Positions 2,430 to 61,107 of a DNA stretch of 64,000 nucleotides are shown one piece after another. A program made the position numbers and the translations under genes. The notes beneath the pieces are model-generated. The model saw only the letters and a list, made by a program, of their open reading frames with translations. It ran no database searches and was not told the origin of the DNA. The DNA is taken from the sequence record OR498728.1. One strand, given 5' to 3'. Positions within the stretch are counted from its first letter, which is position 1; each line of letters begins with the position of its first letter. This stretch comes from Escherichia phage ZX4221.

Positions 2430-2876
2430 ATGGCTATGTATCAGCAATATTCCCCTAAAGACGTTGTGTGTAGCTGGAATGGTATTGCCATTGAAGGCTT
2501 TGCCCCAGACTCATTCTTACGTCTACAGAGAACATCACCACTTGTGACACCAGTTGTAGGTGCAGGTGGTCAAGTTGCTCTGACAAGAAATGCAGACAAG
2601 ACAGGTACTATTGAGATTGAGCTAATGCAGACTTCTCTCTCTAATCAGATGCTTTCTGCAATTCAAGCTAAACAAGACAATATGGAACTTGAAGAAGATA
2701 TCTCTTCTAACTTCGTAATCTACGACCCATCAGGCTCTGTTCTGGCAACTGGTATTAATGCTTGGTTGCAGGAACTACCACAGATTGAACTTGGTCGTGA
2801 CCAGAACTCTAAAACTTGGATTTTTGGTTGTGAGAAGCTAGACTACACTTCTACAATTCCAGCGTCAAGTGTTTAA
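2430..2876 (+). CDS. tail tube protein (putative)
   Basis: 148 aa ORF between sheath-sized gene and chaperone/tape-measure genes; followed by strong terminator. Confidence 0.5.
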   Translation: MAMYQQYSPKDVVCSWNGIAIEGFAPDSFLRLQRTSPLVTPVVGAGGQVALTRNADKTGTIEIELMQTSLSNQMLSAIQAKQDNMELEEDISSNFVIYDPSGSVLATGINAWLQELPQIELGRDQNSKTWIFGCEKLDYTSTIPASSV

Positions 2877-2888
2877 TAAATCCTATAA

Positions 2889-2920
2889 GGGGGAGACTTT
2901 AAAAGGTCTTCCCCTTTTTT
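2889..2920 (+). terminator. rho-independent terminator-like hairpin
   Basis: GGGGGAGAC / GTCTTCCCC stem followed by TTTTTT. Confidence 0.6.
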
Positions 2921-2949
2921 GTTTCTTTTAAAAGTATTAAGGAATCACA

Positions 2950-3348
2950 ATGAAAACAGAAGCTAGAGTAATTAATGGTAAGAAAGTAAATATCGTTCTG
3001 CTTGGGGCAAGAGATGGTATTAAGATGTCTATGAAGTTGGGTAAAATTGTTGTTCCAACCTTTGCACAGATGCTGTCAAGCCTGACTGATAAAGATAAGA
3101 AAGAAGCTCCAATGGTTCCATTTAAAGAACTTGTTGAGGCTTGTTTTGACAGAATTGAAGAAATTAACCTTGAAGAAATGGCTACCCTGCTATTTCAAGG
3201 GGCAACTGTTGATGACTTCCCACTTAATATTGATACATACTTCCAAGCAAACTATGGCGAATTTATTGATTACTTAGCATTTGCGCTGGAGGCAAACTTC
3301 GGAAGTTTTTTCGAAGCAAGCATTTTCAAAAGCCTAACTTCTCAGTAA
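2950..3348 (+). CDS. tail assembly chaperone (putative, G-like)
   Basis: 132 aa ORF between tube and tape measure; contains slippery TTTTTTC near 3' end. Confidence 0.45.
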   Translation: MKTEARVINGKKVNIVLLGARDGIKMSMKLGKIVVPTFAQMLSSLTDKDKKEAPMVPFKELVEACFDRIEEINLEEMATLLFQGATVDDFPLNIDTYFQANYGEFIDYLAFALEANFGSFFEASIFKSLTSQ

Positions 3349-19856: not shown

Positions 19857-19895
19857 CATCACTTAAAAACCCTCTTAGAAGACTCTTAAGTGATG
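19857..19895. repeat. inverted repeat ATCACTTAA...TTAAGTGAT copy 1
   Basis: 9 bp arms, about 19 nt loop; second copy at 21386-21424. Confidence 0.55.
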
Positions 19896-19923
19896 TAATC
19901 GAATTTTAATGTAGCTCCGATTA
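19896..19923. repeat. conserved hairpin copy 2 with compensatory stem (TAATCGa / TCCGATTA)
   Basis: same loop ATTTTAATGTAGC and same AACTACCCATAC tail as copy 1 but a different base-paired stem. Confidence 0.55.
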
Positions 19924-19932
19924 ACTACCCAT

Positions 19933-19981
19933 ACCTCACCTCACCCAACCATACCATGCCTTGCCAGACCGCACCTTACCT
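19933..19981. repeat. C/A-rich pentamer-periodic array
   Basis: CTCACCTCACCCAACCATACCATGCCTTGCCAGACCGCACCTTACC. Confidence 0.5.
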
Positions 19982-20011
19982 CATTAAAAGACCCTCTTAA
20001 AAGACCTTTTA

Positions 20012-20040
20012 AAAAGGAGCCTCCGAAGAGGCTACCTAGT
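20012..20040 (-). terminator. terminator-like hairpin for minus-strand gene 20045..20485
   Basis: AGCCTC-CGAA-GAGGCT; on minus strand followed by CCTTTTT. Confidence 0.5.
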
Positions 20041-20044
20041 CAAC

Positions 20045-20485
20045 TTAGAAAGGTTTTCTACGTTGCTTGTTAATGTTAGCTTTCATAGCAGCTAAATGGT
20101 TTTGCTGTTCAATCAGTCGTGAACGTTCTTGATGACTAAGCGCCATAGTGTTCACATTCTCAATTGCTTGAGTGGCTTGCTTTAAAGCTCGACCAATCTT
20201 ACCAGACATTTTGCGTTTTGCAATAGTTGCTTGATGCTTAGGTTCAACCACACGATAACCAACACCCATTGAAGCAACCAGGTAAATCTTCTCTTCTTTA
20301 AGAAGCTTTTCAATAAACTTCTCAAGTCGGTTTAGACGTGTAAGTGCATAAGCCTTCATTTCATCTTCGTACTTAACAATGTCACCTTGATAAGTTGGCT
20401 TCACAATACCTAAGAAGGTGTCCATCTCGGAATGTGATACAGTGTCGCCGTAACTAAACTTTGCTGCTAATGCTTTTGTATTCAT
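20045..20485 (-). CDS. hypothetical protein (repeat-flanked cassette gene 2)
   Basis: 146 aa, basic C-terminus; no motif recognised. Confidence 0.4.
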   Translation of the reverse strand: MNTKALAAKFSYGDTVSHSEMDTFLGIVKPTYQGDIVKYEDEMKAYALTRLNRLEKFIEKLLKEEKIYLVASMGVGYRVVEPKHQATIAKRKMSGKIGRALKQATQAIENVNTMALSHQERSRLIEQQNHLAAMKANINKQRRKPF

Positions 20486-20487
20486 AA

Positions 20488-21093
<606 letters not shown>

Positions 21094-21176
21094 TTAGTTG
21101 ATTGTTAAGTTGTTTGTAAAGAACCCTCAACAGAAGACTCTTTAGAAACTTGGTAGATTTTTAACGTGGCTACTAC

Positions 21177-21238
21177 CATCCACCCACACCGTGCCACACC
21201 ACACCACACCATACCCAACTCCACCTAATCCTACCACA
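21177..21238. repeat. C/A-rich pentamer-periodic array
   Basis: CCATCCACCCACACCGTGCCACACCACACCACACCATACCC... Confidence 0.6.
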
Positions 21239-24016: not shown

Positions 24017-24231
24017 AGTAAACTCTCAATATTTACACGCTCACCTTTTAAGTAGCCTGTCTTATCTTTTGCGATTTTACCTCCAGCAATAAAGATATCT
24101 ACTCTACGTAGAACTTCAGGGTTTACCTTCAAATTCCTACAGCTACTGCAAAGAACAATAAACATCCCTTCAATCTCTTTTTGAGAATAACCTGCACATT
24201 GCAACTGAACTTCAATCTCTGAAAGTGTCAT
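24013..24231 (-). CDS. small protein, paralog B
   Basis: 72 aa; shares C-terminal motif with 23598..23825. Confidence 0.4.
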   Translation of the reverse strand: MTLSEIEVQLQCAGYSQKEIEGMFIVLCSSCRNLKVNPEVLRRVDIFIAGGKIAKDKTGYLKGERVNIESLL

Positions 24232-24292
24232 GTGACCTCCTATACAAGATATAGTATAAGGTACTCTTCCATGAGCACCTTGTCAATACTAA

Positions 24293-40190: not shown

Positions 40191-42335
40191 ATGAACAAAG
40201 TACAGATTATTAAAAAGAACGGCTCACTTGAAGAACCTGATATCAAAAAAGTTTTAGCAGCAGTAACTAAGTCAGCTAACAGAGTTGGGTATAAAGAACT
40301 CCCACCAGATGTTACCCAAGCTCTTGAGTCAGCATTTATGAGGATTCTGGTAAAGTCCACTAAGCAGAATAATTTGCTCATCTCGGTAAACGATATTCAC
40401 AGTATTGTTGAAGGTGCTTTGGCAGAAGTCAATCACGAGATTTATGAGTCTTACTCAACATACAGAAATTACCGTAAAGAGGTTGCTCAAAATTGGGATG
40501 AGCTTTACCAAAAGACTAAAGACACACTCTTCTTAGGTGACCGTGAAAACGCTAACTTTGACAGTAGTTTAATTTCTACAAAAGGCTCAATTATTCGTGG
40601 TTACCTGACTAAAGAAATCTTTAAACAGTACCATTTAACACCAGAGGAACTTGAAGCCATTGAAAAAGGGTTTATCTACATCCATGACTTAAGAGACCTA
40701 ATTTTTGGTGGGATTAACTGTTGCCTGTTTGACATTGGTAGAGTACTGAAAGGTGGCTTTGAAATGTCTGGCATCGAATACTGTGAACCGAAGTCTGTAC
40801 TGTCAGCCTTACAGGTTATCGGTGATGTAGTTCTTTCAGCAACTGCACAGCAATTTGGTGGCTTTACTTTAGCAGAGATTGACAAGGTGCTTGTACCGTA
40901 TGCTAAGAAGTCTCTACGCTATCATGCTGAGAAAGCAGCATCTTACGGTATTCCTAAAGAACATTACCATAATTATGTCATGGAGCAGCTACAGATTGAA
41001 TTAACTCAAGGTTTCCAGTCACTAGAGATGAAGCTAAATACTGTACCTTGTAGCCGTGGTGATTTCGCATTCACAACTTTAACATTTGGTTTACTTGACT
41101 CAGACATGTCTAATGAAGACAACCGACTACAATACATGATTGCAAACACCATTCTTGATGTTCGCATGAATGGACAAGGTAAGAGCAAGAAGCCTGTTGT
41201 ATTCCCTAAACTGGTTTATATTCATGACCAGAAGAGACACGATGAGAATATCTGTCAAGGTCAACTGTACAGTAAAGCTATTGAGTGTTGCTCTAAAGCT
41301 ATGTATCCAGATTTCTTAAGTGTATCTGGTCATGGTGCTGTAGCAGAGGCTTTTGAGCGTTCTGGCAAGGTAATTTCACCGATGGGTTGCAGAGCTTTCT
41401 TATCCCCATATCTTAACGAGAATGGAGAAGAGTTCTACGTTGGTCGTGCTAATATTGGTGCTGTATCTTTGAACTTACCTATGATTTACCAGTATTCTAA
41501 AGAGAATGGTTTAGATTTCTGGAAAGAACTTGATAAGTACCTAGAGATGATTCGCAGCTTCCACAAGAAACGCTACGAAATGATTGCTAATATGTCAGCA
41601 AGTTCTAACCCTCTTGCATTCACACAAGGTGGTTTGTACAAAGGAACTAAAAAACCTACCGACAAGGTTGGTTGGGATATCGTGAAGTCCTTCACAGCTT
41701 CTTTTGGGGTTACTGCGCTTGATGAGTTGTCTGTTCTTGCTGAAGGTAAACGACTCCATGAAGTTGGAAGTTCTAGTTTTGCATACGATGTTCTGGCATA
41801 CATTAACATGAAAACTGAAGAGTTTAAGAATGAAGATGGCTTCCTGTATGCAGTATATGGCACTCCAGCAGAGTCATTGTGTGGAACTCAGCTAAAACAG
41901 TTCAGAGATATGTTTGGTGTTATCAAAGGCGTTTCTGACAAGGAATACTTTACAAACAGTTTCCATATGAATGTTGCAGCAAACATTTCACCATTTGAGA
42001 AGCAGGACTTAGAAGAGCCATTCTTCCACATCTGTAGAGGTGGCAGAATCCAGTATGTAAGGGTAGCTAACCCAGAAAACTTAACAGCACTTAAAAGTTG
42101 TATTACCAGAGGGATGTTGAAAGGTTTTTATCAGGGGCTTAACTTTGACTTAGCAATCTGTGAGCATTGTGGTAACAGACCAAAGGCTGATGTTGAAGAA
42201 TGTGAGGTTTGCCATTCACATGATATCTCTGTGATTAACAGGGTGTGTGGTTATCTTGGATGGACTAAGATTAAAGGTGAATCCCGAATGAATGATGCAA
42301 AAATTGCTGAGATTCGTGACAGAGTTTCTATGTAA
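40191..42335 (+). CDS. nrdD: anaerobic ribonucleoside-triphosphate reductase
   Basis: 714 aa; ATP-cone N-terminus; C-terminal Zn site CEHCG...CEVCH and glycyl-radical motif RVCGY. Confidence 0.85.
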   Translation: MNKVQIIKKNGSLEEPDIKKVLAAVTKSANRVGYKELPPDVTQALESAFMRILVKSTKQNNLLISVNDIHSIVEGALAEVNHEIYESYSTYRNYRKEVAQNWDELYQKTKDTLFLGDRENANFDSSLISTKGSIIRGYLTKEIFKQYHLTPEELEAIEKGFIYIHDLRDLIFGGINCCLFDIGRVLKGGFEMSGIEYCEPKSVLSALQVIGDVVLSATAQQFGGFTLAEIDKVLVPYAKKSLRYHAEKAASYGIPKEHYHNYVMEQLQIELTQGFQSLEMKLNTVPCSRGDFAFTTLTFGLLDSDMSNEDNRLQYMIANTILDVRMNGQGKSKKPVVFPKLVYIHDQKRHDENICQGQLYSKAIECCSKAMYPDFLSVSGHGAVAEAFERSGKVISPMGCRAFLSPYLNENGEEFYVGRANIGAVSLNLPMIYQYSKENGLDFWKELDKYLEMIRSFHKKRYEMIANMSASSNPLAFTQGGLYKGTKKPTDKVGWDIVKSFTASFGVTALDELSVLAEGKRLHEVGSSSFAYDVLAYINMKTEEFKNEDGFLYAVYGTPAESLCGTQLKQFRDMFGVIKGVSDKEYFTNSFHMNVAANISPFEKQDLEEPFFHICRGGRIQYVRVANPENLTALKSCITRGMLKGFYQGLNFDLAICEHCGNRPKADVEECEVCHSHDISVINRVCGYLGWTKIKGESRMNDAKIAEIRDRVSM

Positions 42336-43082: not shown

Positions 43083-43117
43083 GTAAAACAATTAAATAAT
43101 ATTGGTGAGGTAACTAG

Positions 43118-44446: not shown

Positions 44447-44467
44447 ACAGATACTATAAGGGGACTG

Positions 44468-44496
44468 TAAAGGTTCCCTTTTTTATTTTGGAGATA
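44468..44496 (+). terminator. terminator-like hairpin
   Basis: AAGGGGA...TTCCCTT then TTTTTT. Confidence 0.45.
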
Positions 44497-44498
44497 AT

Positions 44499-45014
44499 AT
44501 GTATCTGTCAAATTTGAAACGTTCTGCTGCAATGTCTGTCCTAAGACTGAGCTTTGAGGAACGTCAAGAGTTCATTGACTCCCACCAATACGACCCTTCT
44601 AACTCAAATCACATGATTCTCTGGAATCGTGACAGTACTCGTGAAAGAGCACTATTCCGCTATTACCCACATTACACCATAGATAATCTGTATGAATGTT
44701 TTGTTGTGAAGAACACCATTGCAGTGCTCAATAAGCTTTGTAGATACACAGGTAATCAAACCTTCACATTAGGTCACCACAAGCCTGTTACAAAAGGTGG
44801 TGAGCATCACTGTACAAACTGGTTTATCCAAACTAAAGCTGATAACCAGAGGCAAGGCGATAGCCTTCTAAGTGCTCCTAAGATGACCTATGAAGAGCAA
44901 GAGAAATATATCAAAAATAATATGCCAGATGTGCTTGACAACAACTATACAGATTTGGCAATATCTCTCCTGTTGAAGTTCGAGACAGTTTATAGGGCAA
45001 CTTACAATGGCTAA
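44499..45014 (+). CDS. HNH nuclease-like protein (tentative)
   Basis: GHHKPVTKGGEHHCTNW resembles an HNH core. Confidence 0.35.
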   Translation: MYLSNLKRSAAMSVLRLSFEERQEFIDSHQYDPSNSNHMILWNRDSTRERALFRYYPHYTIDNLYECFVVKNTIAVLNKLCRYTGNQTFTLGHHKPVTKGGEHHCTNWFIQTKADNQRQGDSLLSAPKMTYEEQEKYIKNNMPDVLDNNYTDLAISLLLKFETVYRATYNG

Positions 45015-45285
45015 AGAGAAGTGGGAGATTTTACCATTAGTGAGTGAAGGTGGTAACGGTTGTGAGATGTACATGATACGAGGTCATGTTCCAGAACCAA
45101 TTGCACTTGAGATGGTAAACAATTTTACAGATGGTTCTTACAAAGACTTAGGAGAACCAACTGTCAAGCAACAATGGGTTAAACCTGTACCAGACAGCAC
45201 AGGTAACTGTAGTGTACTTTATCACGTTGTAGACCCTGCAAAATGCAAATCTGCAATGGCAGTAACAAACATAACCTTTGATTGA
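45007..45285 (+). CDS. hypothetical protein
   Basis: 92 aa. Confidence 0.3.
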   Translation: MAKEKWEILPLVSEGGNGCEMYMIRGHVPEPIALEMVNNFTDGSYKDLGEPTVKQQWVKPVPDSTGNCSVLYHVVDPAKCKSAMAVTNITFD

Positions 45286-46180
45286 GAGAGAGAAAACTAT
45301 GAAAACTGTTATTGAAGTAGTTGTCACCGCACAAGAGAAATTCTTCCACACAGAAAAATTTAATATCATCCAATTCCCATCTGGAGAAATTGGTGGAAAC
45401 TTCTCTGAAGATTTTGTTAAGTTTACTGAGCGTAATGCTGGTAACATTGACAATGTTATACTCACTGTGCAGGGATATGATAAAGATACACTGTTTGCAT
45501 TAGCTTTGGCTAAGGATGCCGTTGACAGTCTTGTTCCATACAAATCAGCGATGAAAACCGTTGTTTTCGGGTTCTTACCGAATGCTAGATATGACCGCCA
45601 TATGTTCAAAGGTGATTCAGCAGCACTGAAAGCTTTTGCCAACCTCGTTAATGCAATGGGTTTTGATGCAGTATGTGCTCTTGACCCTCACAGTAATGTT
45701 GCAGAAAACTTATTTAAGTGCTTTCAGAGCATGAAGCAAAAAGATGTAGCAGCACACTTTGCAAGTGACCCACGCATTGACTTCTTGGTAGCCCCAGATG
45801 CAGGTGCAGCTAAGAAGACTGAAGAGACTGCTAAAGAGGTGGATAAACCATACGTCACAATGTCTAAAGTACGCAACCTTAAGACTGGTGAAATTACTGG
45901 TATGCGAATCCTTGATGCTGTTGATTTGACCGATAAAACTGTCATGATTCTTGATGATATTTGTGATGGAGGCCGAACCTTCATAGAAGCAGCTAAACAT
46001 CTTCGTGAAGCAGGTGCAAAACGTGTGGAACTCTATGTAACTCATGGCATTTTCTCTAAAGGTGTTGAAAACTTACTTGACAATGGTATTGACCATATCT
46101 ACACTACAAACTCTTTAGGGGAAGCTAAAGACCGTGGCTTAACACCTTATGCCCAAGTTACTGTAGTAACCATTGATTGA
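45278..46180 (+). CDS. ribose-phosphate pyrophosphokinase family protein (Prs-like)
   Basis: C-terminal half aligns by eye with Prs PRPP-binding region: VMILDDICDGGRTFIEAAKHLREAGAKRV. Confidence 0.75.
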   Translation: MIEREKTMKTVIEVVVTAQEKFFHTEKFNIIQFPSGEIGGNFSEDFVKFTERNAGNIDNVILTVQGYDKDTLFALALAKDAVDSLVPYKSAMKTVVFGFLPNARYDRHMFKGDSAALKAFANLVNAMGFDAVCALDPHSNVAENLFKCFQSMKQKDVAAHFASDPRIDFLVAPDAGAAKKTEETAKEVDKPYVTMSKVRNLKTGEITGMRILDAVDLTDKTVMILDDICDGGRTFIEAAKHLREAGAKRVELYVTHGIFSKGVENLLDNGIDHIYTTNSLGEAKDRGLTPYAQVTVVTID

Positions 46181-46188
46181 AACTTTAT

Positions 46189-46214
46189 AGGGGGCTTCAA
46201 AGCCCCATTTTGAG
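46189..46214 (+). terminator. terminator-like hairpin
   Basis: GGGGCTT-CAA-AGCCCC then ATTTT. Confidence 0.45.
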
Positions 46215-46226
46215 AGAGATTAAAAG

Positions 46227-48008
46227 ATGACTAAATCACTTTATGCAGTACCAGCAGGTTTAAACGCAGATGCTTACAAATCTGGTCACATTTACCAGTA
46301 TCCTAGTGCAACAGAATACTTGATGTTCAACCTTACACCACGTAGTGATAAATGGTTTAACAGTCCTTTAGCAATTGACGGTGTAGTGGCTTTTGGTATT
46401 CAACGTTTTGTTAAAGATTACTTGATAGACCACTGGAACGCCACCTTCTTTGAACGTGACAAAAAAGAAGCAATTGACGAAATCTTAGAAGTCATGAACG
46501 GTGTTCTGGGTAAAGATGCTATTGGTCGTGAACATTGGGAAGCACTTCACGACTTAGGTTATCTACCAGTTGAAGTATACGCTGTAGAAGAAGGCACAGT
46601 TGTTCCTATGCGTGTACCAATGATTGTCTTCCAGAACACTGTTTCAGGTTTCCATTGGGTAGCTGGGTATCTGGAAGATGCTTTCTCTGCTGAGATTTGG
46701 AAGGCTTGTACTATTGCAACTATTGCATTGCACTACAAACGTATCTGTAAGAAGTGGTCTGACCTTACTTGTGATAACGACTTACATTTGCCTTATCAGT
46801 GCCATGACTTTGCTATGCGTGGTATGTCCGGCTTTACTGATGACGCATTTAACGCTGTAGGACACTTAACCAGCTTTAAAGGTACTGATAGCTTCCCTGC
46901 TGTATATACAGCTAAACGCATCTATGGACAGTCCTACCCAATCTCTGATATTGGTAGCTCTGTACCAGCTACTGAACACTCTGTAATGTGTGCAAACATT
47001 GCTTGGGAAGGTGGTAATGAGTTGATTGAAGAAGAAAGACGCTTTAAAGGTGAGTTACAAACCTTCCGTCGTTTCTTAACAGAAACTTACCCAACTGGTA
47101 TTGCAAGTGTTGTTTCAGACACTTATAACTTCTGGAGAACTGTATCAGAAATCTTACCAGCACTTCGTAAAGAGATTATGGAACGTGACGGCAAACTGGT
47201 AATTCGTCCTGACTCTGGTGACCCTGTACATATTGTCACAGGTTATAAAGCAATCCACTTAGAGTGTGCTAAAAAGGCTTACTATGAACACCTAAGCAAG
47301 CTGGAAGCCAGCGACACAATGCTGAATGCTGTTCTGAACATGAAGCTTGAAAACATCAACTATGGTATTGCTGGATGGCTACTGTCAGAAGGCTACGAGA
47401 TGGTTGTTGACAGAGAAGACTTTGAAGTTGCTGATACAGTGTTGTTGAAAAATGCTTATATGGTTGGCTCTGCAAACGTTGTAACACGTCCTGTAGCAGA
47501 GATTGATGGGGCTATTAAGACCTTGTATAACATCTTTGGAGGGACTATCAACTCTAAAGGCTTTAAGGTACTGGATGAGCACATTGGCCTCATCTATGGC
47601 GACTCTATCACGTTGGAACGTGCAAACGAAATCCTTAAGCGTTTGTATGAAATGGGTTTTGCAAGCTCTAACGTAGTGTTTGGTGTAGGTTCTTACACTT
47701 ACCAGTACATGACTCGTGACACCTTTGCATTTGCTGTCAAAGCAACTCTTGCAAGCATTGGTGGTAAAGAGATTATGCTTGCAAAAGACCCTAAAACAGA
47801 TAGTGGTGTTAAGAAGTCTGCTTTTGGTGGTGTAGCACCTATGTGGGATGGTGATAAGCTGAAAGCTGTAGATGGCTATGGATTCCAGAGCTTTGAAGAT
47901 GTACTTGAGCATCCAGCTTGTGCTTTACGTTTAGTCTTTAGCGAATCTGAGCAGTTTGGCTACACAACTCTTGGTGATATTCGAAATAATATTGACAAGC
48001 AACTCTAA
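46227..48008 (+). CDS. nicotinamide phosphoribosyltransferase family protein (NAMPT/NadV-like)
   Basis: several blocks match NAMPT as recalled: DAYKSGH, HDFAMRGMS...FKGTDS, SVPATEHSVM, SVVSDTYNFW, IRPDSGDP. Confidence 0.8.
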   Translation: MTKSLYAVPAGLNADAYKSGHIYQYPSATEYLMFNLTPRSDKWFNSPLAIDGVVAFGIQRFVKDYLIDHWNATFFERDKKEAIDEILEVMNGVLGKDAIGREHWEALHDLGYLPVEVYAVEEGTVVPMRVPMIVFQNTVSGFHWVAGYLEDAFSAEIWKACTIATIALHYKRICKKWSDLTCDNDLHLPYQCHDFAMRGMSGFTDDAFNAVGHLTSFKGTDSFPAVYTAKRIYGQSYPISDIGSSVPATEHSVMCANIAWEGGNELIEEERRFKGELQTFRRFLTETYPTGIASVVSDTYNFWRTVSEILPALRKEIMERDGKLVIRPDSGDPVHIVTGYKAIHLECAKKAYYEHLSKLEASDTMLNAVLNMKLENINYGIAGWLLSEGYEMVVDREDFEVADTVLLKNAYMVGSANVVTRPVAEIDGAIKTLYNIFGGTINSKGFKVLDEHIGLIYGDSITLERANEILKRLYEMGFASSNVVFGVGSYTYQYMTRDTFAFAVKATLASIGGKEIMLAKDPKTDSGVKKSAFGGVAPMWDGDKLKAVDGYGFQSFEDVLEHPACALRLVFSESEQFGYTTLGDIRNNIDKQL

Positions 48009-48022
48009 AAGTATATGATAAG

Positions 48023-48045
48023 AGGCTCCTACGGGAGCCTTTTTA
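48023..48045 (+). terminator. rho-independent terminator-like hairpin
   Basis: GGCTCC-TAC-GGGAGCC then TTTTT. Confidence 0.6.
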
Positions 48046-48061
48046 ATTTCTGGAGAAGATT

Positions 48062-48583: not shown

Positions 48584-50950
48584 ATGCGCATGGTAAATGA
48601 CCACGCAGAAGTGATTAAGAGTTCAACTTCTTTAGAGACGTCTCAAGCACAGATTACAATGACACCTGAAATGTTCAGCCTTTTGAGTTCTGGTGTATAT
48701 ACCTTTAAAGAAAGGGCAGTTATTCGTGAACTGTCATGTAACGCAGTAGATGCTCAGAAAGAAGCTGGAAAAGAGAACATCCCGTTCCATGTGCATTTAC
48801 CTACTCGTTTTGAGCCTTACTTTGAAGTTCGTGATTTTGGAACTGGATTGACTCATGATAAAGTTATGAGTTTGTATCTAAATTACGGGGCTTCTACGAA
48901 GAATGACTCTAATGACTACATTGGTGCAATGGGTATCGGCTCAAAATCCCCATTTGCAATTGCTCAGTCATTCACAGTATCTAGCTATGTTGATGGTGTT
49001 GTCAATAAGTACTCTGTTTACCTTGAGAATGGTATCCCTCAAGTAACTAAGCTGACCACTAACCCAACAAAAGAACCTAATGGTTTAGCTGTACGTGTAG
49101 CAGTTGCTGACCACCGTATTTCAAAGTTCTTTGAAGAAGCTGGTCACGTATACTCATACTTTGCTGTAAAACCAGAAAGTAATATCGAGTACGACGATGT
49201 ATTAGCAGACATGAATGTCATTGCCCGTGAAGAAGGTGTTTATGATGCCATGATTCATAAGCAAAGCTGGCGCTCTAGTGGTAACAGGACAGAGTTTAAT
49301 GTGGTGATGGGTAACATCGCCTACCCTGTTAACATGGAAGCACTACTTGGTGATGATTTCTTCAAAGTCTTGCCAGAGTTTTTCCGTAGGAGCGTAGACC
49401 TTGTAAACATCTATATGCCTATTGGTTCAGTTGCTATTGCAGCTTCTCGTGAAGCATTGCAGATGAATGATACAACAAAAAATGTTATCATTGAGGCTAC
49501 TAAAAAGATAACTGAAGCAATTACAAAGGATGTTATCAAGAAAGTTAATAGCCAACCTACACTCATGGATGCTGCACAGGCTTATGCTGAGTTACGTTTA
49601 AACTCACGAGAGATGTTTAATGCTGTGTGTCCAAAACTAGAGTGGGGAGGCGTTAAGCTTGATTCTTTGGAAGAAGAATTGCTAAACATTCGTCGTGGAA
49701 TTATCTACGCAGAAGACGGCTCAGTTATCTATGAACGTGATGGTAAAGGTAATATTAAGGTTGATAGGAACGGAAACAATATCCCTAAAGTAGATTATCT
49801 TTATAATCCAGTTGCTTATGTTAAGTTCAACTCTTTAGAAAGTAAGATTCGTGCAACAGCACTTTCCTACACTCAAGAGGCAAGTATGTTCAATATCTTT
49901 GGCGCAATGCGCAAAAGCCAAATTGAACAGTTTTTGTTTGTTATCAATGACCGTCGCAATAAAAATGGTACTGAGAAGACTGTAGGACGCAACCAAATCT
50001 TGCGTGGTGCATGTCGAGACTATGCCAGTGAGTCAAGTCTGTTTCACAGATATAATGGTATTGTCTTTGTATTCTCTAATGAGGAAGAGCTAGATGATTT
50101 AATCAATCTGCACAAACTTGATAAAAGCTTGTTAAAGATTGTGAAGATGTCTGATAAGGAACACCATTACCAGCGTAAAGAAGCTGTAAGAGGTGTTGTA
50201 AAACTCTGGAAAGCTGTTCCAGCAGAAGGTGTAGCTTCATACAAAGAGGTGTCAGAAGACTTAGATACGATTGAAGAGCCTCAGCTTTATATTAAGGCAG
50301 TAGGCGACACAGTTGATGGCGAATGTTTTTGCTCATCTCCAGAAGATGTAGCTAAGTCAGTTGCCAATGTCATTGAAAAGACAGTCTATGTTTTCCGAAA
50401 AGCAAATTGGAAAAAGATACCAGAAGACTGGATTGAAGTAGATGAGAAGCTCTTGAACGACAGCTTAACTGGTATTCACTGGATTAATCATAACAGGTAC
50501 ATGACACGTATCTATATGAATGGTGTCCTAGACCTTACAAGCAGTTGGATTATTGCCAGAAACTTTACGTTCAATAACAGGAAGATTTCTCGTGGCTATT
50601 GCTATTCACGAGACACAAACAAAACTATCTTCTTAGAAGGTAATGAAGATGCTGTTGAGGCAATGTTTGGTAAAATCCAATACGTTGCTGCACCGTTTGC
50701 ATACACTTACACTATTAGTGTGTTGCAAGATTTGAAAAGGTGTCTTGACAATGATACAAAGCTGTACAAGAAAATTAAGAAAGCTGGTGACCGTATGGTT
50801 ATTAAGGTGACAAACTATCTTTTAAAAAGAAAACAAGAAAACTTCTTGCTTTCTCATTTAGATTGGAATAAAGTGTCACCCATCGAAGTGAGTAAGTTCT
50901 TAGGCTTTGATGTGAAGTGTGTTCCAGAAGGGACTACAATTTACGATTAA
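48584..50950 (+). CDS. rIIA: rIIA-like protein (GHKL ATPase-like N-terminal domain)
   Basis: 788 aa; N-terminal RELSCNAVDA resembles GHKL N-box; followed by rIIB-sized gene. Confidence 0.6.
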   Translation: MRMVNDHAEVIKSSTSLETSQAQITMTPEMFSLLSSGVYTFKERAVIRELSCNAVDAQKEAGKENIPFHVHLPTRFEPYFEVRDFGTGLTHDKVMSLYLNYGASTKNDSNDYIGAMGIGSKSPFAIAQSFTVSSYVDGVVNKYSVYLENGIPQVTKLTTNPTKEPNGLAVRVAVADHRISKFFEEAGHVYSYFAVKPESNIEYDDVLADMNVIAREEGVYDAMIHKQSWRSSGNRTEFNVVMGNIAYPVNMEALLGDDFFKVLPEFFRRSVDLVNIYMPIGSVAIAASREALQMNDTTKNVIIEATKKITEAITKDVIKKVNSQPTLMDAAQAYAELRLNSREMFNAVCPKLEWGGVKLDSLEEELLNIRRGIIYAEDGSVIYERDGKGNIKVDRNGNNIPKVDYLYNPVAYVKFNSLESKIRATALSYTQEASMFNIFGAMRKSQIEQFLFVINDRRNKNGTEKTVGRNQILRGACRDYASESSLFHRYNGIVFVFSNEEELDDLINLHKLDKSLLKIVKMSDKEHHYQRKEAVRGVVKLWKAVPAEGVASYKEVSEDLDTIEEPQLYIKAVGDTVDGECFCSSPEDVAKSVANVIEKTVYVFRKANWKKIPEDWIEVDEKLLNDSLTGIHWINHNRYMTRIYMNGVLDLTSSWIIARNFTFNNRKISRGYCYSRDTNKTIFLEGNEDAVEAMFGKIQYVAAPFAYTYTISVLQDLKRCLDNDTKLYKKIKKAGDRMVIKVTNYLLKRKQENFLLSHLDWNKVSPIEVSKFLGFDVKCVPEGTTIYD

Positions 50951-51029: not shown

Positions 51030-52139
51030 ATGACTACTAAAACTAAAGCACAGATTGACGCAGAAATTTACAAACTGGTTAAAGAAGGTAAGCTGACTAA
51101 AACAGCTATTGCACAGAAGTTCAATACTTCAACCCGTTCAGTTGGTCGTGCTGTAGAGCGTCATGAAGCAACCTTAAAAGGTAAGAAAAAGGTAGCTTCG
51201 ACACCAGCTAAGAAGACTTTGAAGCAAGTTGCTAAGTCAGTTAAAAAGAAAGCTGGAAAACCAGTTGAAAAGGTTGTTAAAGACACTGTACAGAAAGTTC
51301 CAGTAAATAAACTGCACGAAGCTATGCAGAAAGATGACAAGATTGAGTACATGATTACTGGCGACTCTGTAATTATGACTTACGGTTCAGAATCTGAAAT
51401 TGTTGAGTCTACTCATCCGAACTATCAAGAGATTGTAGTTCACGTTGTGAAAGGTGAGTTCAAGAAAGCATTTGAACTGATGAACATTCGTAAGTCTATC
51501 GAAAACTTCACTCAGGGTGCTATCACAATCAAAGGTGACAAGCTATTCTACGGTGCTGTTGAGATGCGTTCTACTCTGGTTGACCGTATCCTTCACATGA
51601 TGAAGACTGGTGATAAAGGTTTTGAACGCCTTGTAATGTTCTTCGAAAAACTGATGGAAAACCCATCTAAAGATTCTGTAGAACAACTTTGGGGATTCGT
51701 ATCTCACCTTGATGTTGAAATTGATGAAGAAGGCTACATCATTGGTTGGAAGAAAGTCTCTACTCGTGAAGGCAAGCTGGTTGACTCTCACACCTACAAA
51801 GTACCTAATGATTTGGGTAACATTGTAGAAATGCCACGTTGGATGGTTGATAACAACCGTAACGTAACTTGCTCTCAGGGTCTTCATGTTGGTGCTTGGG
51901 ATTATGTTCGTTGCTTCTCAGGCGATACAATCCTGAAGGTTCGTGTCCATCCACGAGATGTTGTATCTGTTCCGACTGATTACAACGATATGAAGATGCG
52001 TTCATCCCGTTATGAAGTTGCAGCAATCGTTGATAATCAACGTAAAGTGCTGAAAGCATGGGACGGTAAGACTGAAGCTTTGCATGTCATCGTTGGCACT
52101 GCTGGTGAACTCATCTCCCAACGCAAACGTGAAATCTAA
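51030..52139 (+). CDS. rIIB: rIIB-like protein (putative)
   Basis: 369 aa directly downstream of rIIA-like gene; synteny and size only. Confidence 0.45.
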   Translation: MTTKTKAQIDAEIYKLVKEGKLTKTAIAQKFNTSTRSVGRAVERHEATLKGKKKVASTPAKKTLKQVAKSVKKKAGKPVEKVVKDTVQKVPVNKLHEAMQKDDKIEYMITGDSVIMTYGSESEIVESTHPNYQEIVVHVVKGEFKKAFELMNIRKSIENFTQGAITIKGDKLFYGAVEMRSTLVDRILHMMKTGDKGFERLVMFFEKLMENPSKDSVEQLWGFVSHLDVEIDEEGYIIGWKKVSTREGKLVDSHTYKVPNDLGNIVEMPRWMVDNNRNVTCSQGLHVGAWDYVRCFSGDTILKVRVHPRDVVSVPTDYNDMKMRSSRYEVAAIVDNQRKVLKAWDGKTEALHVIVGTAGELISQRKREI

Positions 52140-55495: not shown

Positions 55496-56281
55496 ATGGG
55501 TATTGTAAAAATCATCAAAGGTGATATCTTTGACGCATTTGATAAAGGTAAATTTGATATCATTGGTCATGGTTGCAACTGTATGAATTTCATGGGTGCA
55601 GGTATTGCAGCAACTATTTCTAAGCGTTATCCAAAAGTGTATGATACTGACACAGAAGTTTACCTGTTTGCAGGTGGCATTCGCCACAAACCTTGTGAAA
55701 ATTTACTCGGTAATTTCTCTGTAGCACGTTTAAAACAAGGTCGTATAGCTAACCTTTACACCCAACTCCATACTGGTAAAGATGCCCGATACAGTGCTTT
55801 AGAGTCATCTTTGAAGCAGCTTAACAGATACTGTGAAGTCAATCAGTTGAAGAAAGTCGGGTTACCTATGATTGGTGCAGGTATCGGTGGGCTAGACCCT
55901 CAAGCCGTCACAGTCATCATCAATCAGGTGATGAAGAGTGTAGATGTTTATCTGTATGTCTATGAAGGAGAGATGTACCACAAGTTACGCTCAGGTTGGA
56001 AGAACTACTGTGAACCAGAGTACTTTGCAGGTGTAGTTGTCTTCACAGATAACGCAGTTACCCTCTTCAGACGAAGAAAAGGTAAGATACATCAAAGTAA
56101 CCCTCCGGTTGAAAAGATGTCTCTAAGTAACGCTCTAGTTACCCACCTGTCGAAGAGCAACCACAGGATTGCTGTAACATTTGGTAGTGATGCAGAAACT
56201 TATATCTATGCAAGAACTGATGAGGATATCGAGACAGTTTTTTCTTCACCAGAAGTTACCTTCTTAGACGCAAAGAACTAA
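55496..56281 (+). CDS. macrodomain protein (ADP-ribose binding/hydrolase-like)
   Basis: IKGDIF, FDIIGHGCNCMNFMGAGIAATI and VGLPMIGAGIGGLD match macro-domain signature blocks as recalled. Confidence 0.55.
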   Translation: MGIVKIIKGDIFDAFDKGKFDIIGHGCNCMNFMGAGIAATISKRYPKVYDTDTEVYLFAGGIRHKPCENLLGNFSVARLKQGRIANLYTQLHTGKDARYSALESSLKQLNRYCEVNQLKKVGLPMIGAGIGGLDPQAVTVIINQVMKSVDVYLYVYEGEMYHKLRSGWKNYCEPEYFAGVVVFTDNAVTLFRRRKGKIHQSNPPVEKMSLSNALVTHLSKSNHRIAVTFGSDAETYIYARTDEDIETVFSSPEVTFLDAKN

Positions 56282-60564: not shown

Positions 60565-61107
60565 ATGAAATGCTTTCACGGTACTACTCAAGAAAACTTT
60601 ACCAACCTGCTTAATAACGGTGATAAACCATCAGGCGCATGGAATTGTTCGGATATGGACGGCAATTTTTACGTGTATCCAGAAAATAAAATCTATGGCG
60701 ACGATGAGGAAGAAATAATCTCTGAAGGTATCCAGCAGGCTCTAGGTAATGCAGCTATCACCGCAGCTTTCCAGATGAAAACCCAAAATATTGTTATCTT
60801 AGAACTTGATATCCCAGAGGATGACCTAAATGATGATTATTCTTGTGATAATATGTCGAGCGTGGCAAGTTTTACAGAGTATTTTGATATAAGCTGGATT
60901 AAAAAGGTTTACATCACTGAATTTAATGCTATGTTTTCACCTTTTTGTCTTCCTTCACTGGATAACCCAAATTTAAACTATCTTGATGAGTCTCTGGAAC
61001 TTCTCGCTAAAAGTGTTCAACAATCAGACAGTATTCAGGTTTTTTGTGACATCATGGATACACTAACAGGAAACATTGCAGAAGAGGATTTAAAGAGCTT
61101 TTTCTAA
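60565..61107 (+). CDS. small early protein (hypothetical, acidic)
   Basis: 180 aa. Confidence 0.45.
   Translation: MKCFHGTTQENFTNLLNNGDKPSGAWNCSDMDGNFYVYPENKIYGDDEEEIISEGIQQALGNAAITAAFQMKTQNIVILELDIPEDDLNDDYSCDNMSSVASFTEYFDISWIKKVYITEFNAMFSPFCLPSLDNPNLNYLDESLELLAKSVQQSDSIQVFCDIMDTLTGNIAEEDLKSFF

Follow-up and report, generated by a model that had tools for sequence, protein, structure and literature searches.

A probable NARP1 operon for NAD+ reconstitution in Escherichia phage ZX4221, a Felixounavirus

NARP1 and its characterised representatives

It is now established biology that phages can rebuild NAD+ from what SIR2, TIR and SEFIR NADases leave behind. The pathway, NARP1 (NAD+ reconstitution pathway 1, comprising Adps and Namat), was discovered in gp79 and gp80 of Bas63 (10.1101/2024.02.11.579819). 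Without genes 79-80, this phage plated about 20-fold more poorly on SIR2-HerA, and NAD+ was restored by the wild type only (Osterman et al., 10.1101/2024.02.11.579819). In the same study, ADPR-pyrophosphate (ADPR-PP, m/z 720.010) appeared in infected cells only when both Bas63 genes and the defence were present, and the phenotype held in a pncC nadR double-deletion host, showing that neither PncC nor NadR is needed (10.1101/2024.02.11.579819). PhageMaP independently found that single g79 or g80 deletions cut plating on Sir2-HerA by 10^4-10^6, with rescue by complementation (10.1101/2024.10.10.617714).

Because purification of Bas63 Adps failed, the in vitro specificity of the pathway rests on the SpbetaL1 homologs (33% identity for Adps and 43% for Namat), for which both reactions were shown in vitro (Osterman et al.). 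Crystal structures of SpbetaL1 Namat (9W5W and 9W5X) show how the enzyme selects ADPR-PP (Lan et al. 2026, PMC12774641), and some PRPP-dependent NMN-forming activity is retained by Namat in vitro. Bas63 Adps was among the queries used to define the Adps clade, 97% of whose members directly adjoin a Namat homolog. Bacterial NARP1 also occurs in Paenibacillus foliorum (Lan et al. 2026, PMC12774641). Plain NARP1 cannot beat aRES-type defences; in the NARP1-AP operons of Vibrio phages Gary and Dax, the gene order is Adps, Macro-domain Adpp, Namat (10.64898/2026.01.28.702374).

The adps-namat locus of phage ZX4221

The window, by which we mean the whole 64,000-nucleotide stretch analysed (Escherichia phage ZX4221, OR498728.1), comes from a Felixounavirus (Felix O1-like phage) and is collinear with the BASEL phage Bas63 (JohannRWettstein) at ~92.6% nucleotide identity. 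Both genomes share the order nrdG, small ORFs, the adps-namat pair and rIIA/rIIB. A sequence-only reading had described adjacent Prs-family and NAMPT-family genes at 45278-48008, and Pfam, NCBIfam and PHROG matches bear this out. Both ORFs and their plus strand stand as described, but the start of the first does not: the mechanical ORF, opening with the TTG at 45278, runs across the stop codon (45283-45285) of the preceding gene, and the true start is almost certainly the ATG at 45299, which we chose because GAGAGAGAGAAAAC lies just upstream of it and because the gene is annotated with this same length, 882 nt, in Bas63 and AYO145A. The same TGAGAGAGA-type motif precedes the namat ATG. On these calls, adps (ADP-ribose pyrophosphate synthetase, Prs-family) would span 45299-46180 and encode 293 aa, and namat (nicotinamide ADP-ribose transferase, NAMPT-family) spans 46227-48008 and encodes 593 aa, with a same-strand spacer of 46 nt (46181-46226) between them.

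We assign the pair, with a probability of about 0.94, to the NARP1 operon of a Felixounavirus. Its products are 95% (Adps, 277/293) and 98% (Namat, 582/593) identical to Bas63 gp79 and gp80 in gapless alignments, which upholds the earlier proposal of a candidate NAD+ reconstitution module. The module itself is already known; the Bas63 version, essentially the same, is its founding example. In the predicted mechanism, a host SIR2, TIR or SEFIR NADase would split NAD+ into ADP-ribose and nicotinamide, Adps (45299-46180) would convert ADP-ribose to ADPR-PP by ATP-dependent pyrophosphorylation of its free ribose, and Namat (46227-48008) would let nicotinamide replace the pyrophosphate, yielding NAD+ directly. 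The restored NAD+ pool would then allow the phage to escape abortive infection. This is the two-enzyme route, ADPR pyrophosphorylation followed by nicotinamide condensation, that had been offered as one of two options and that coincides with the published NARP1 pathway; the link drawn to Thoeris and SIR2-type defences likewise agrees with the literature.

Family matches for both proteins are far past chance level. Adps matches Pfam Pribosyltran (1.4e-13) and Pribosyl_synth (3.7e-09) and PHROG 619 'ribose-phosphate pyrophosphokinase' (1.1e-97), and among NCBIfam Prs models TIGR01251 ribP_PPkin, a broad subfamily model, is the sole one that it passes (134 bits, cut-off 113). It fails every housekeeping-Prs equivalog model used (NF002095, NF002844, NF002758, NF001815, NF003428, NF002686 and NF002618), scoring 48-110 bits against cut-offs of 296-536, and it also falls below the stricter Prs subfamily models NF002320, NF005537 and NF005299 (53-96 bits against 297-327). 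In pairwise comparisons it scores higher to the biochemically characterised SpbetaL1 Adps (93 bits, 33% identity) and to Dax gp175 (120 bits, 37%) than to E. coli Prs (63 bits, 27%). Judged by these pairwise scores, the window protein belongs to the Adps clade, apart from housekeeping Prs, and its gene directly adjoins a namat homolog as is the rule in that clade. Its PRPP loop and ARxDR motif are kept (FPSGE, NARYDRH, DPHS and DDICDGGRT are all visible), and its catalytic Lys190 (codon 45866-45868), within TMSKVRNLKTGEI, aligns with K162 of SpbetaL1 Adps, the counterpart of loop lysine K197 in B. subtilis Prs, and with the loop lysine of archaeal and mycobacterial Prs structures. Among Felixounavirus phages, the N-terminal ~180 residues of Adps are strongly divergent and appear to evolve fast.

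Namat matches NAPRTase in Pfam (7.7e-35), passes NCBIfam NF006629 (466 bits, cut-off 405) and falls in PHROG 448 'nicotinamide phosphoribosyl transferase' (3.6e-201). Its best sequence match in the PDB is SpbetaL1 Namat (9W5W/9W5X, E 9e-128), compared with 7e-52 for Xanthomonas Nampt and ~1e-40 for human NAMPT. An AlphaFold2 model (pLDDT 92.5) has the same two Namat structures as its best fold matches (TM 0.94 on the target), with HdNadV and human NAMPT ranking lower. All catalytic residues are retained: compared with the SpbetaL1 crystal structure, the window protein keeps D15, Y17, F195, R198, D221, A248, H251, R327, D329, G458, D459, G488, S489, T496, R497 and D498, and the Nampt-like core among them (F195, Y17, D221, R327, D329 and H251) is invariant in a 27-sequence alignment. 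The catalytic histidine of NAMPT-type enzymes is a phospho-histidine; here it is His251, encoded at 46977-46979 on the plus strand within ATEHS, aligned to H245 of SpbetaL1 and present in 27/27 homologs. Two ligand contacts differ from the SpbetaL1 enzyme, S190 to A196 and A362 to S460, the latter being made through the backbone.

The elements that select for ADPR-PP are recognisable as well. The selectivity-clamp helix (SCH) motif GSYTYQYMTRD (residues 488-498, 47688-47720, plus strand) matches by regular expression the published Namat motif GS-X-Phi1-X-Phi2-X-Phi3-TRD and carries the adenine-stacking aromatics Y490 and Y494, equivalent to F392 and Y396 of SpbetaL1; its Phi3 is Met, against the published 'mainly Asn/Val', and Bas63 has the same sequence. 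The selectivity-clamp loop (SCL), RSDKWFNSPL (R39-L48, 46341-46370, plus strand), maps onto R37-E42 of SpbetaL1 and is identical in Bas63. Adenine stacking by this loop follows a rule in which the third residue is Arg, or else Lys or Tyr with the fourth residue stacking; a third-position Lys with a stacking fourth residue is described for, 'e.g. Bas63 Namat', where the role was assigned through an AlphaFold3 model (Lan et al. 2026, PMC12774641). With K42 as third and W43 as fourth residue, W43 would be expected to stack on adenine in the window protein too.

These features bear on the main competing view, canonical salvage, in which the Prs-like enzyme would make PRPP from ribose-5-phosphate, a NadV would make NMN, and a host or phage NMN adenylyltransferase would complete NAD+ in a NARP2-like manner. 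Such a view matches how the families are named in Pfam, NCBIfam and PHROG and how almost all GenBank records annotate the genes. We nevertheless consider it very improbable: Bas63 still overcomes SIR2-HerA in the pncC nadR double-deletion host; SpbetaL1 Adps gave no product in a Prs assay, yet made ADPR-PP from ADPR and ATP; Namat offered both donors formed NAD+ only; the window protein has the Namat clamp motif rather than a Nampt-type sequence; Adps lies under every Prs equivalog threshold; and no NMN adenylyltransferase is annotated in Bas63 or turned up among the scanned window neighbours. A NadV-type salvage step fed by phage PRPP, the other option originally offered, is thus disfavoured by the Bas63 and SpbetaL1 data, the clamp motif and the Prs cut-offs. 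A minor salvage contribution by Namat is possible.

We judge the ADPR route to be the right one given the Namat catalytic and clamp residues, the fold match, the retained Adps lysine and the failed Prs thresholds. The window proteins would be expected to behave like their Bas63 counterparts, in view of their near-identity, conserved catalytic and clamp residues and fold; the predicted activities are ADPR + ATP to ADPR-PP and ADPR-PP + nicotinamide to NAD+, in preference to PRPP, with counter-defence as the predicted outcome. The sequence-only reading had held that sequence alone cannot tell which substrates are used, which was too pessimistic, given near-identical characterised orthologs and a Namat-specific clamp motif. 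It had also named what would speak against it: firm clustering of both proteins with housekeeping Prs and canonical NadV together with lack of a defence-dependent phenotype, or else loss of catalytic residues. Adps scores below all Prs equivalog cut-offs, the Namat catalytic residues and Adps Lys190 are kept, and for the Bas63 orthologs a phenotype is documented.

The genomic setting invites a second alternative. The pair lies directly downstream of ribonucleotide reductase genes, in a block that also holds nrdAB, nrdDG, thymidylate synthase and similar genes, as might be expected if it mainly boosted PRPP and NAD for phage nucleotide metabolism and its anti-defence effect were incidental. We find this hard to credit, since no ADPR-PP was seen in Bas63-infected cells without the defence, which argues that the pathway idles when NAD+ is not cleaved, and since the same block holds other genes with counter-defence roles reported from experiments (gp77 against retron Ec67, rIIA/rIIB against qatABCD). 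Idling is what the NARP1 assignment would predict, because the substrates are themselves the cleavage products and NARP1 would have nothing to act on until a defence fired.

A pattern scan suggests how the operon may be transcribed. A terminator-like hairpin at 48020-48049 (plus strand), with a 10-bp stem and a T run, begins 12 nt past the namat stop, and the identical sequence follows namat in Bas63; it is the probable 3' end of the transcription unit. A second terminator-like site lies at 44458-44490, upstream of the gp77-like gene. Taken from these patterns, the two sites would bound a unit at 44499-48008 that runs from the gp77-like gene through the gp78-like gene and adps to namat. Within the adps-namat spacer, a further hairpin, GGGGCU-UCAA-AGCCCC followed by AUUUU (46191-46211, plus strand), has a centroid fold of -11.4 kcal/mol with a z-score of just -1.75 and looks terminator-like or attenuator-like. 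It is kept in Bas63 and AYO145A, and the AYO145A record labels it a rho-independent terminator; with 4 T only, it fell short of the terminator criteria of our scan. In GEC_vB_B1, an HNH homing endonuclease gene stands in place of this hairpin, the spacer being the site of an HNH gene in relatives.

The sequence-only reading recognised a genuine anti-defence module. About 250 Felixounavirus records still name the pair 'ribose-phosphate pyrophosphokinase' and 'nicotinamide/nicotinate phosphoribosyltransferase'; many of these phages are candidates for biocontrol or therapy against E. coli and Salmonella. Re-annotation to Adps and Namat is possible and bears on host-range prediction against NAD-depleting defences.

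An unlinked Macro-domain gene and a Namat insertion domain

A candidate accessory gene lies 7.5 kb downstream of namat (55496-56281, plus strand, 261 aa). Its product has a Macro domain (Pfam Macro, 30.1 bits, cut-off 22) and falls in the Poa1p/Adpp family (PHROG 335, 6.6e-115). Residues 3-154 of this protein align with Dax gp176 of Vibrio along its entire length (29% identity, E 1e-16); in phage Dax, gp176 lies between adps and namat, and it shares 94.3% identity with the Adpp characterised in Vibrio phage Gary. One could therefore envision an extended pathway in trans, in which the Macro protein would act as an Adpp-like ADPR-1''-phosphate phosphatase and supply NARP1-AP function without operon linkage, so that NAD+ could be rebuilt after attack by aRES-type RES-domain defences. 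Shared PHROG 335 membership, the end-to-end alignment with Dax gp176 and common HxCNC...MGxGIA and GLPxIGxG motifs are in keeping with such a role, and the published Adpp screen spanned two genes around NARP1 and would have missed an unlinked copy. We regard it as rather unlikely even so. PHROG 335 comprises ~2,700-3,000 phage records, including T4-like Tk.4, most of them away from NARP1, and membership therefore implies no NARP1-coupled role. Among solved structures, the nearest in sequence are TARG1/OARD1 and the DarG macrodomain, the match to Poa1p is weak (E 0.004 over residues 5-55), and the protein has a C-terminal extension of ~100 residues that Adpp lacks. It is no less plausible that the protein removes ADP-ribosylation, for instance to counter DarT-type toxins.

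Ounavirinae Namat proteins carry two insertions (~15 and ~85 residues) that are absent from the crystallised SpbetaL1 enzyme. The larger, at residues ~342-427 (47250-47507, plus strand), is a compact alpha/beta module placed after the RPDSGDP ribose-binding strand and before the YGDS loop, and it is confidently folded in the model. It is probably an autonomously folding domain specific to the Ounavirinae-type lineage; no structural relatives of it were found. Rather than neutral decoration, it may be a functional add-on, serving for instance in docking, in regulation or in protection from a host inhibitor. We think it improbable, at perhaps one chance in several, that NAD+ rescue in Felixounavirus is more elaborate than two-gene NARP1, with the Macro protein feeding in ADPR-1''-phosphate or other ADPR derivatives in trans to cover aRES-type defences and the insertion serving as a functional add-on. 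The insertion domain, the unlinked Macro gene and the N-terminal divergence of Adps are covered in none of the NARP1 papers cited here.

Comparison with known systems

With housekeeping Prs of E. coli and B. subtilis, Adps shares the type I phosphoribosyltransferase-like fold, the flexible-loop lysine and the ARxDR and DxH motifs; it differs in its low identity to the E. coli enzyme, its failure at the equivalog cut-offs and its Namat neighbour. Namat likewise has the NAMPT fold and catalytic core of KVP40 NARP2 (NadV-NatV) and of bacterial NadV (Haemophilus ducreyi NadV, 9KE8), whereas the HdNadV sequence GAQTYQRNTRD lacks aromatics at clamp positions 3 and 7, and NARP2 pairs its enzyme with an NMN adenylyltransferase instead of a Prs-like partner. 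We rejected NARP2 (NadV plus NatV), as no NatV is annotated in Bas63 or turned up in the scanned neighbours and the clamp motif is present.

Among the relatives compared, the closest outside the insertion-bearing phage group are chromosomal NrtR-linked pairs of enterobacteria (Klebsiella michiganensis, Cronobacter), which share the gene order and SCH motif (Adps 49%, Namat ~47% identity). Unlike the phage genes, they lie among core genes with a divergent NrtR-type (Nudix plus winged-helix) regulator, and their Namat has 496 aa and no insertion domain. NARP1 is under active study, and these NrtR-linked chromosomal versions are among its side leads.

The NARP1-AP systems of Vibrio phages Gary and Dax (10.64898/2026.01.28.702374) resemble the window in having Adps and Namat homologs and a PHROG 335 Macro protein in the genome. 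Here the Macro gene sits outside the operon, 7.5 kb away, and a scan of five ORFs upstream and two downstream of NARP1 found no Macro or RyR domain (Pfam E<=1, PHROGs); by the operon criterion of an Adpp within two genes, the locus is not NARP1-AP.

SpbetaL1 NARP1 has the same two-gene order, the Adps catalytic lysine, all Namat catalytic residues, an SCH motif with two aromatics and the same fold (TM 0.94). Against this stand identities of just 33% (Adps) and 43% (Namat), a clamp loop that in the window uses K42-W43 rather than R40 and is 4 residues longer, the ~15- and ~85-residue insertions, and a 46-nt spacer with a hairpin where the SpbetaL1 genes abut. Closest of all is Bas63 NARP1 (bas63_0079/0080), which differs by 16 substitutions in Adps and 11 in Namat and is followed directly by the small gene bas63_0081, absent from the window, but which shares its genus, genomic position, protein lengths (293/593 aa), 95%/98% identity, intergenic hairpin, downstream terminator, clamp loop and clamp helix.

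A NARP1 gene pair

The two adjacent genes encode Adps and Namat, the enzymes of NAD+ reconstitution pathway 1 (NARP1), in which Adps makes ADPR-pyrophosphate (ADPR-PP) from ADP-ribose (ADPR) and ATP, and Namat joins ADPR-PP to nicotinamide to form NAD+. The sequence-only reading had placed neighboring Prs-like and NAMPT-like genes at 45278-48008, and ORF calls for gene 1 (45278-46180, +) and the adjoining gene 2 (46227-48008, +) agreed with Pfam, NCBIfam and PHROG searches in confirming them. In Pfam, gene 1 matched the phosphoribosyltransferase and Prs-associated domains and gene 2 matched NAPRTase/NAMPT_N. In NCBIfam, gene 1 passed the broad Prs subfamily model at 134 bits (cut-off 113) and gene 2 passed NF006629 at 466 bits (cut-off 405). 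The PHROG matches were 619 for gene 1 (1.1e-97) and 448 for gene 2 (3.6e-201). The pair thus stands, with a correction to its first coordinate. The mechanical call for gene 1 begins at a TTG (45278) whose codon overlaps the stop of the gene upstream; the start is most likely ATG 45299, giving 293 aa, because an RBS-like GAGAGAGA-type motif common to gene 2 precedes this ATG and because the corresponding 882-nt version is annotated in Escherichia phage JohannRWettstein (Bas63) and in AYO145A.

The phage group of the window is the very one in which NARP1 was discovered (Osterman et al., 10.1101/2024.02.11.579819). In that study, deleting Bas63 'genes 79-80' (its adps and namat) made plating on SIR2-HerA ~20-fold worse, NAD+ was restored by wild-type Bas63 only and not by the deletion mutant, ADPR-PP was seen only with both genes 79-80 and the defense, and the effect was kept in a pncC nadR double-deletion host. 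Because Bas63 Adps purified poorly, the reactions were demonstrated with homologs from Bacillus phage SPbetaL1, whose Adps converts ADPR and ATP to ADPR-PP and whose Namat converts ADPR-PP and nicotinamide to NAD+, preferring ADPR-PP over PRPP (Osterman et al., 10.1101/2024.02.11.579819). An independent genome-wide knockout study found that single g79 or g80 deletions in Bas63 lowered Sir2-HerA plating by 10^4-10^6, with complementation restoring it, and reported weaker effects of g79/g80 deletion on retron Ec86 and the hhe system (PhageMaP, 10.1101/2024.10.10.617714). The window proteins align without gaps to their Bas63 counterparts, at 277/293 identical residues (95%) for Adps against gp79 and 582/593 (98%) for Namat against gp80, and we infer that these 16 and 11 substitutions leave function unchanged.

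In the solved structures of SPbetaL1 Namat (9W5X, 9W5W), adenine is bound by a 'selectivity clamp' with two parts, a variable loop (SCL) and a helix (SCH) with the motif GS-X-Phi-X-Phi-X-Phi-TRD (Lan et al. 2026, PMC12774641). We transferred the SPbetaL1 ligand contacts through a phmmer alignment, with positions verified by script. The window Namat keeps D15, Y17, F195, R198, D221, A248, H251 (the catalytic His), R327 and D329, as well as G458, D459, G488, S489, T496, R497 and D498; the sole contact differences are S190 to A196 and A362 to S460. Its clamp aromatics, Y490 and Y494, lie within GSYTYQYMTRD, and its clamp loop (R39-S-D-K42-W43) is the same as in Bas63, where adenine stacking is ascribed to the fourth loop residue (Lan et al. 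2026, PMC12774641). A PDB search by sequence also ranked Namat structures first (E 9e-128), with Xanthomonas Nampt (7e-52) and human NAMPT (~1e-40) far behind, and the AlphaFold2 model (pLDDT 92.5, pTM 0.91) matched 9W5X/9W5W best (TM 0.94 on target). The window Adps, whose catalytic Lys190 aligns with SPbetaL1 K162, falls below every housekeeping-Prs equivalog cut-off in NCBIfam and scores higher in pairwise comparison with the Adps of SPbetaL1 and of Vibrio phage Dax than with E. coli Prs.

These comparisons, of family profiles and of substrate-binding residues, were among the checks that the sequence-only reading had proposed. Of its two routes, the first, a NadV-type salvage step fed by phage-made PRPP, would make the pair a canonical Prs and NadV, an assignment that now lives on in database names alone. 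Genetic and metabolite data from the orthologs contradict it, as does the clamp motif in the window protein, and no NMN adenylyltransferase is among the annotated Bas63 genes. The second, the two-enzyme ADP-ribose route, is the one that the ortholog data and the clamp motif bear out. The gene pair is real, its interpretation as an NAD+ reconstitution module was right and the module was already known.

Gene neighborhood and phage background

Terminator-like hairpins found by pattern scan at 44458-44480, upstream of the gp77-like gene, and at 48020-48043, after namat, enclose a block of four genes: the gp77-like gene, a gp78-like gene, adps and namat. The 46-nt adps-namat spacer (46181-46226) holds a smaller conserved hairpin followed by AUUUU (46191-46206), annotated as a terminator in AYO145A; we regard it as an unproven candidate terminator or attenuator that is both conserved and annotated. 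It does not qualify as a significant structure, with a z-score of only -1.75, and it misses the T-run criterion of the terminator scan. An HNH homing endonuclease gene fills this spacer instead in several relatives, among them GEC_vB_B1, Mushroom, VpaE1, Si3 and D1-2. A search beside the pair for the accessory genes encoding the Macro-domain Adpp and the RyR-domain RyDEP found none, and the locus is therefore the plain two-gene form of NARP1.

The gp77-like gene (44499-45014, +) is an ortholog of Bas63 gp77 (94% identity), a reported counter to retron Ec67 described as GIY-YIG (PhageMaP, 10.1101/2024.10.10.617714). Pfam and PHROG scans of the window gene gave no GIY-YIG match, only a weak HNH-endonuclease-like one (phrog_2214, 1e-4) together with an HNH-looking motif, HHKPVTKGGEHHCTNW. 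Downstream of the pair, 48584-50950 and 51030-52139 (both +) are rIIA-like and rIIB-like genes by position and length, in a collinear block ~92.5% identical in nucleotides to Bas63, and correspond to Bas63 g84/g85, reported counters to the qatABCD defense system (PhageMaP, 10.1101/2024.10.10.617714). Because gp77 and g84/g85 are reported as counters in Bas63, the stretch from gp77 to rIIB is rich in counter-defense genes.

A megablast of the locus returned 257 phage records, the top one at 96.4% identity across the locus. Nearly all belong to Felixounavirus, the Felix O1-like myoviruses that infect E. coli, Salmonella and Shigella. Two records labeled otherwise, GU169904.1 ('Staphylococcus phage SA1', ~94% identical) and MG065668.1 ('Campylobacter phage A126', ~90%), probably reflect contamination or mislabeling. 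The window is collinear with Bas63 (MZ501086) 7,891-71,566, at a mean nucleotide identity of 92.6% with a few small indels, and a tRNA scan of the whole window found none. Relative to Bas63, the window lacks bas63_0081 (phrog_20372, function unknown), which directly follows namat, at 48009-48061; bas63_0072, at 43093-43100; and, at 41388, a 741-bp segment within the two-piece nrdD of Bas63 that includes the homing-endonuclease gene bas63_0068 and is probably an intron. A homing-endonuclease region near the DNA polymerase also differs (24017-24292), and the window has ~1.3 kb that Bas63 lacks (19895-21198), whose two ORFs (phrog_5926, phrog_4652) are of unknown function.

Variable regions of Namat and Adps

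Compared with SPbetaL1 Namat, the Ounavirinae enzyme has ~100 additional residues. Most of them form a main insertion of ~85 residues (residues ~342-427, window 47250-47507, +) that separates the RPDSGDP strand from the YGDS loop; a second insertion, variable and smaller, spans residues ~258-272 (46998-47042, +). Whether modeled by itself (pLDDT 92, pTM 0.81) or within the whole protein, the main insertion is predicted to be a compact alpha/beta domain, one that folds autonomously. No structural or Pfam relative of it was detected. It can be aligned over 13 diverged lineages; within the phage collection only 253 records, of Felixounavirus/Mooglevirus type, have it. Its divergence outpaces that of the core, with 42-50% amino acid identity in the Moogle/Sf13 group against 74-77% for the whole protein. 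Across the family, its site is a hot spot of length variation, from 13 to 95 residues.

Adps varies at its N terminus. Against GEC_vB_B1-type Felixounaviruses, identity is 57-80% over residues 1-180 (45299-45840, +), 93-97% over residues 181-270 and 78% over the last 23 residues, with Namat 96.8% identical. The first ~180 residues thus set apart two Adps allele groups among Felixounaviruses, and many records lack megablast similarity over the first ~300 nt of adps. Recombination or diversifying selection could account for this divergence.

A Macro-domain gene, chromosomal relatives and the published pathway

A gene 7.5 kb downstream of the pair (55496-56281, +) encodes a protein of 261 aa with a Macro domain (Pfam Macro, 30.1 bits; PHROG 335, 'phosphatase'), the ortholog of Bas63 gp95 ('putative phosphatase'). 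It shares PHROG 335 with Dax gp176, whose gene is located between adps and namat. The Adpp of Vibrio phage Gary is a characterized ADPR-1''-phosphatase (10.64898/2026.01.28.702374), and Dax gp176 matches it at 94.3% identity. The window protein is 29% identical to Dax gp176 over the full Adpp length (E 1e-16), with an extra C-terminal part of ~100 residues, and the published Adpp screen covered only genes within <=2 genes of NARP1 (10.64898/2026.01.28.702374). Because PHROG 335 is very broad (~3,000 records, including T4-like Tk.4), an Adpp role is only a hypothesis. The best solved-structure matches are TARG1/OARD1 (E 1.7e-6) and the DarG macrodomain (E 4e-5); the NCBIfam DarG model has a cut-off of 250 bits and the protein scores 54, so it is not a DarG equivalog. 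The Asp of the TARG1 GCGLD loop, which we take to be catalytic Asp125, aligns with Gly in the window protein and, by eye in a pairwise alignment, with Ala in Dax gp176. The protein could act as a de-ADP-ribosylase, or as an Adpp encoded apart from NARP1.

The product of 60565-61107 (+), probably by collinearity the ortholog of Bas63 gp107, had no Pfam match; gp107 is reported to resemble slightly, in structure, the NAD-binding domain of RNA 2'-phosphotransferase (Tpt1) (PhageMaP, 10.1101/2024.10.10.617714). This product, the Macro protein and a polynucleotide kinase gene (Bas63 gp87) are a hint that the phage carries out further RNA chemistry linked to ADPR or NAD. It seems unlikely that NAD+ rescue in this phage is an extended system, unlinked in part, in which Namat has a lineage-specific add-on domain.

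Among the relatives compared outside the insertion-bearing phages, the closest (~47-49% identity) are Adps-Namat pairs on the chromosomes of Klebsiella and Cronobacter. In Klebsiella michiganensis (DAHJTQ010000013.1, 4211-7491), an Adps-like protein of 289 aa, 49% identical to the window Adps, and a Namat-motif protein of 496 aa are encoded beside the divergent gene of an NrtR-type regulator (Nudix + WHD_NrtR), and core genes surround them (crp, prkB ... yheS, kefB, slyD). NrtR comes off DNA in response to its effector, ADP-ribose; if this NrtR does so too, the pair would be a NARP1 induced by its own substrate.

The cited NARP1 papers mention possible housekeeping roles and do not mention NrtR, and the word 'insertion' is absent from Lan et al. 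2026 (PMC12774641). Set against these papers, four points go beyond what they cover: the Namat insertion domain, the Macro-domain gene, the Adps allele divergence and the chromosomal relatives.
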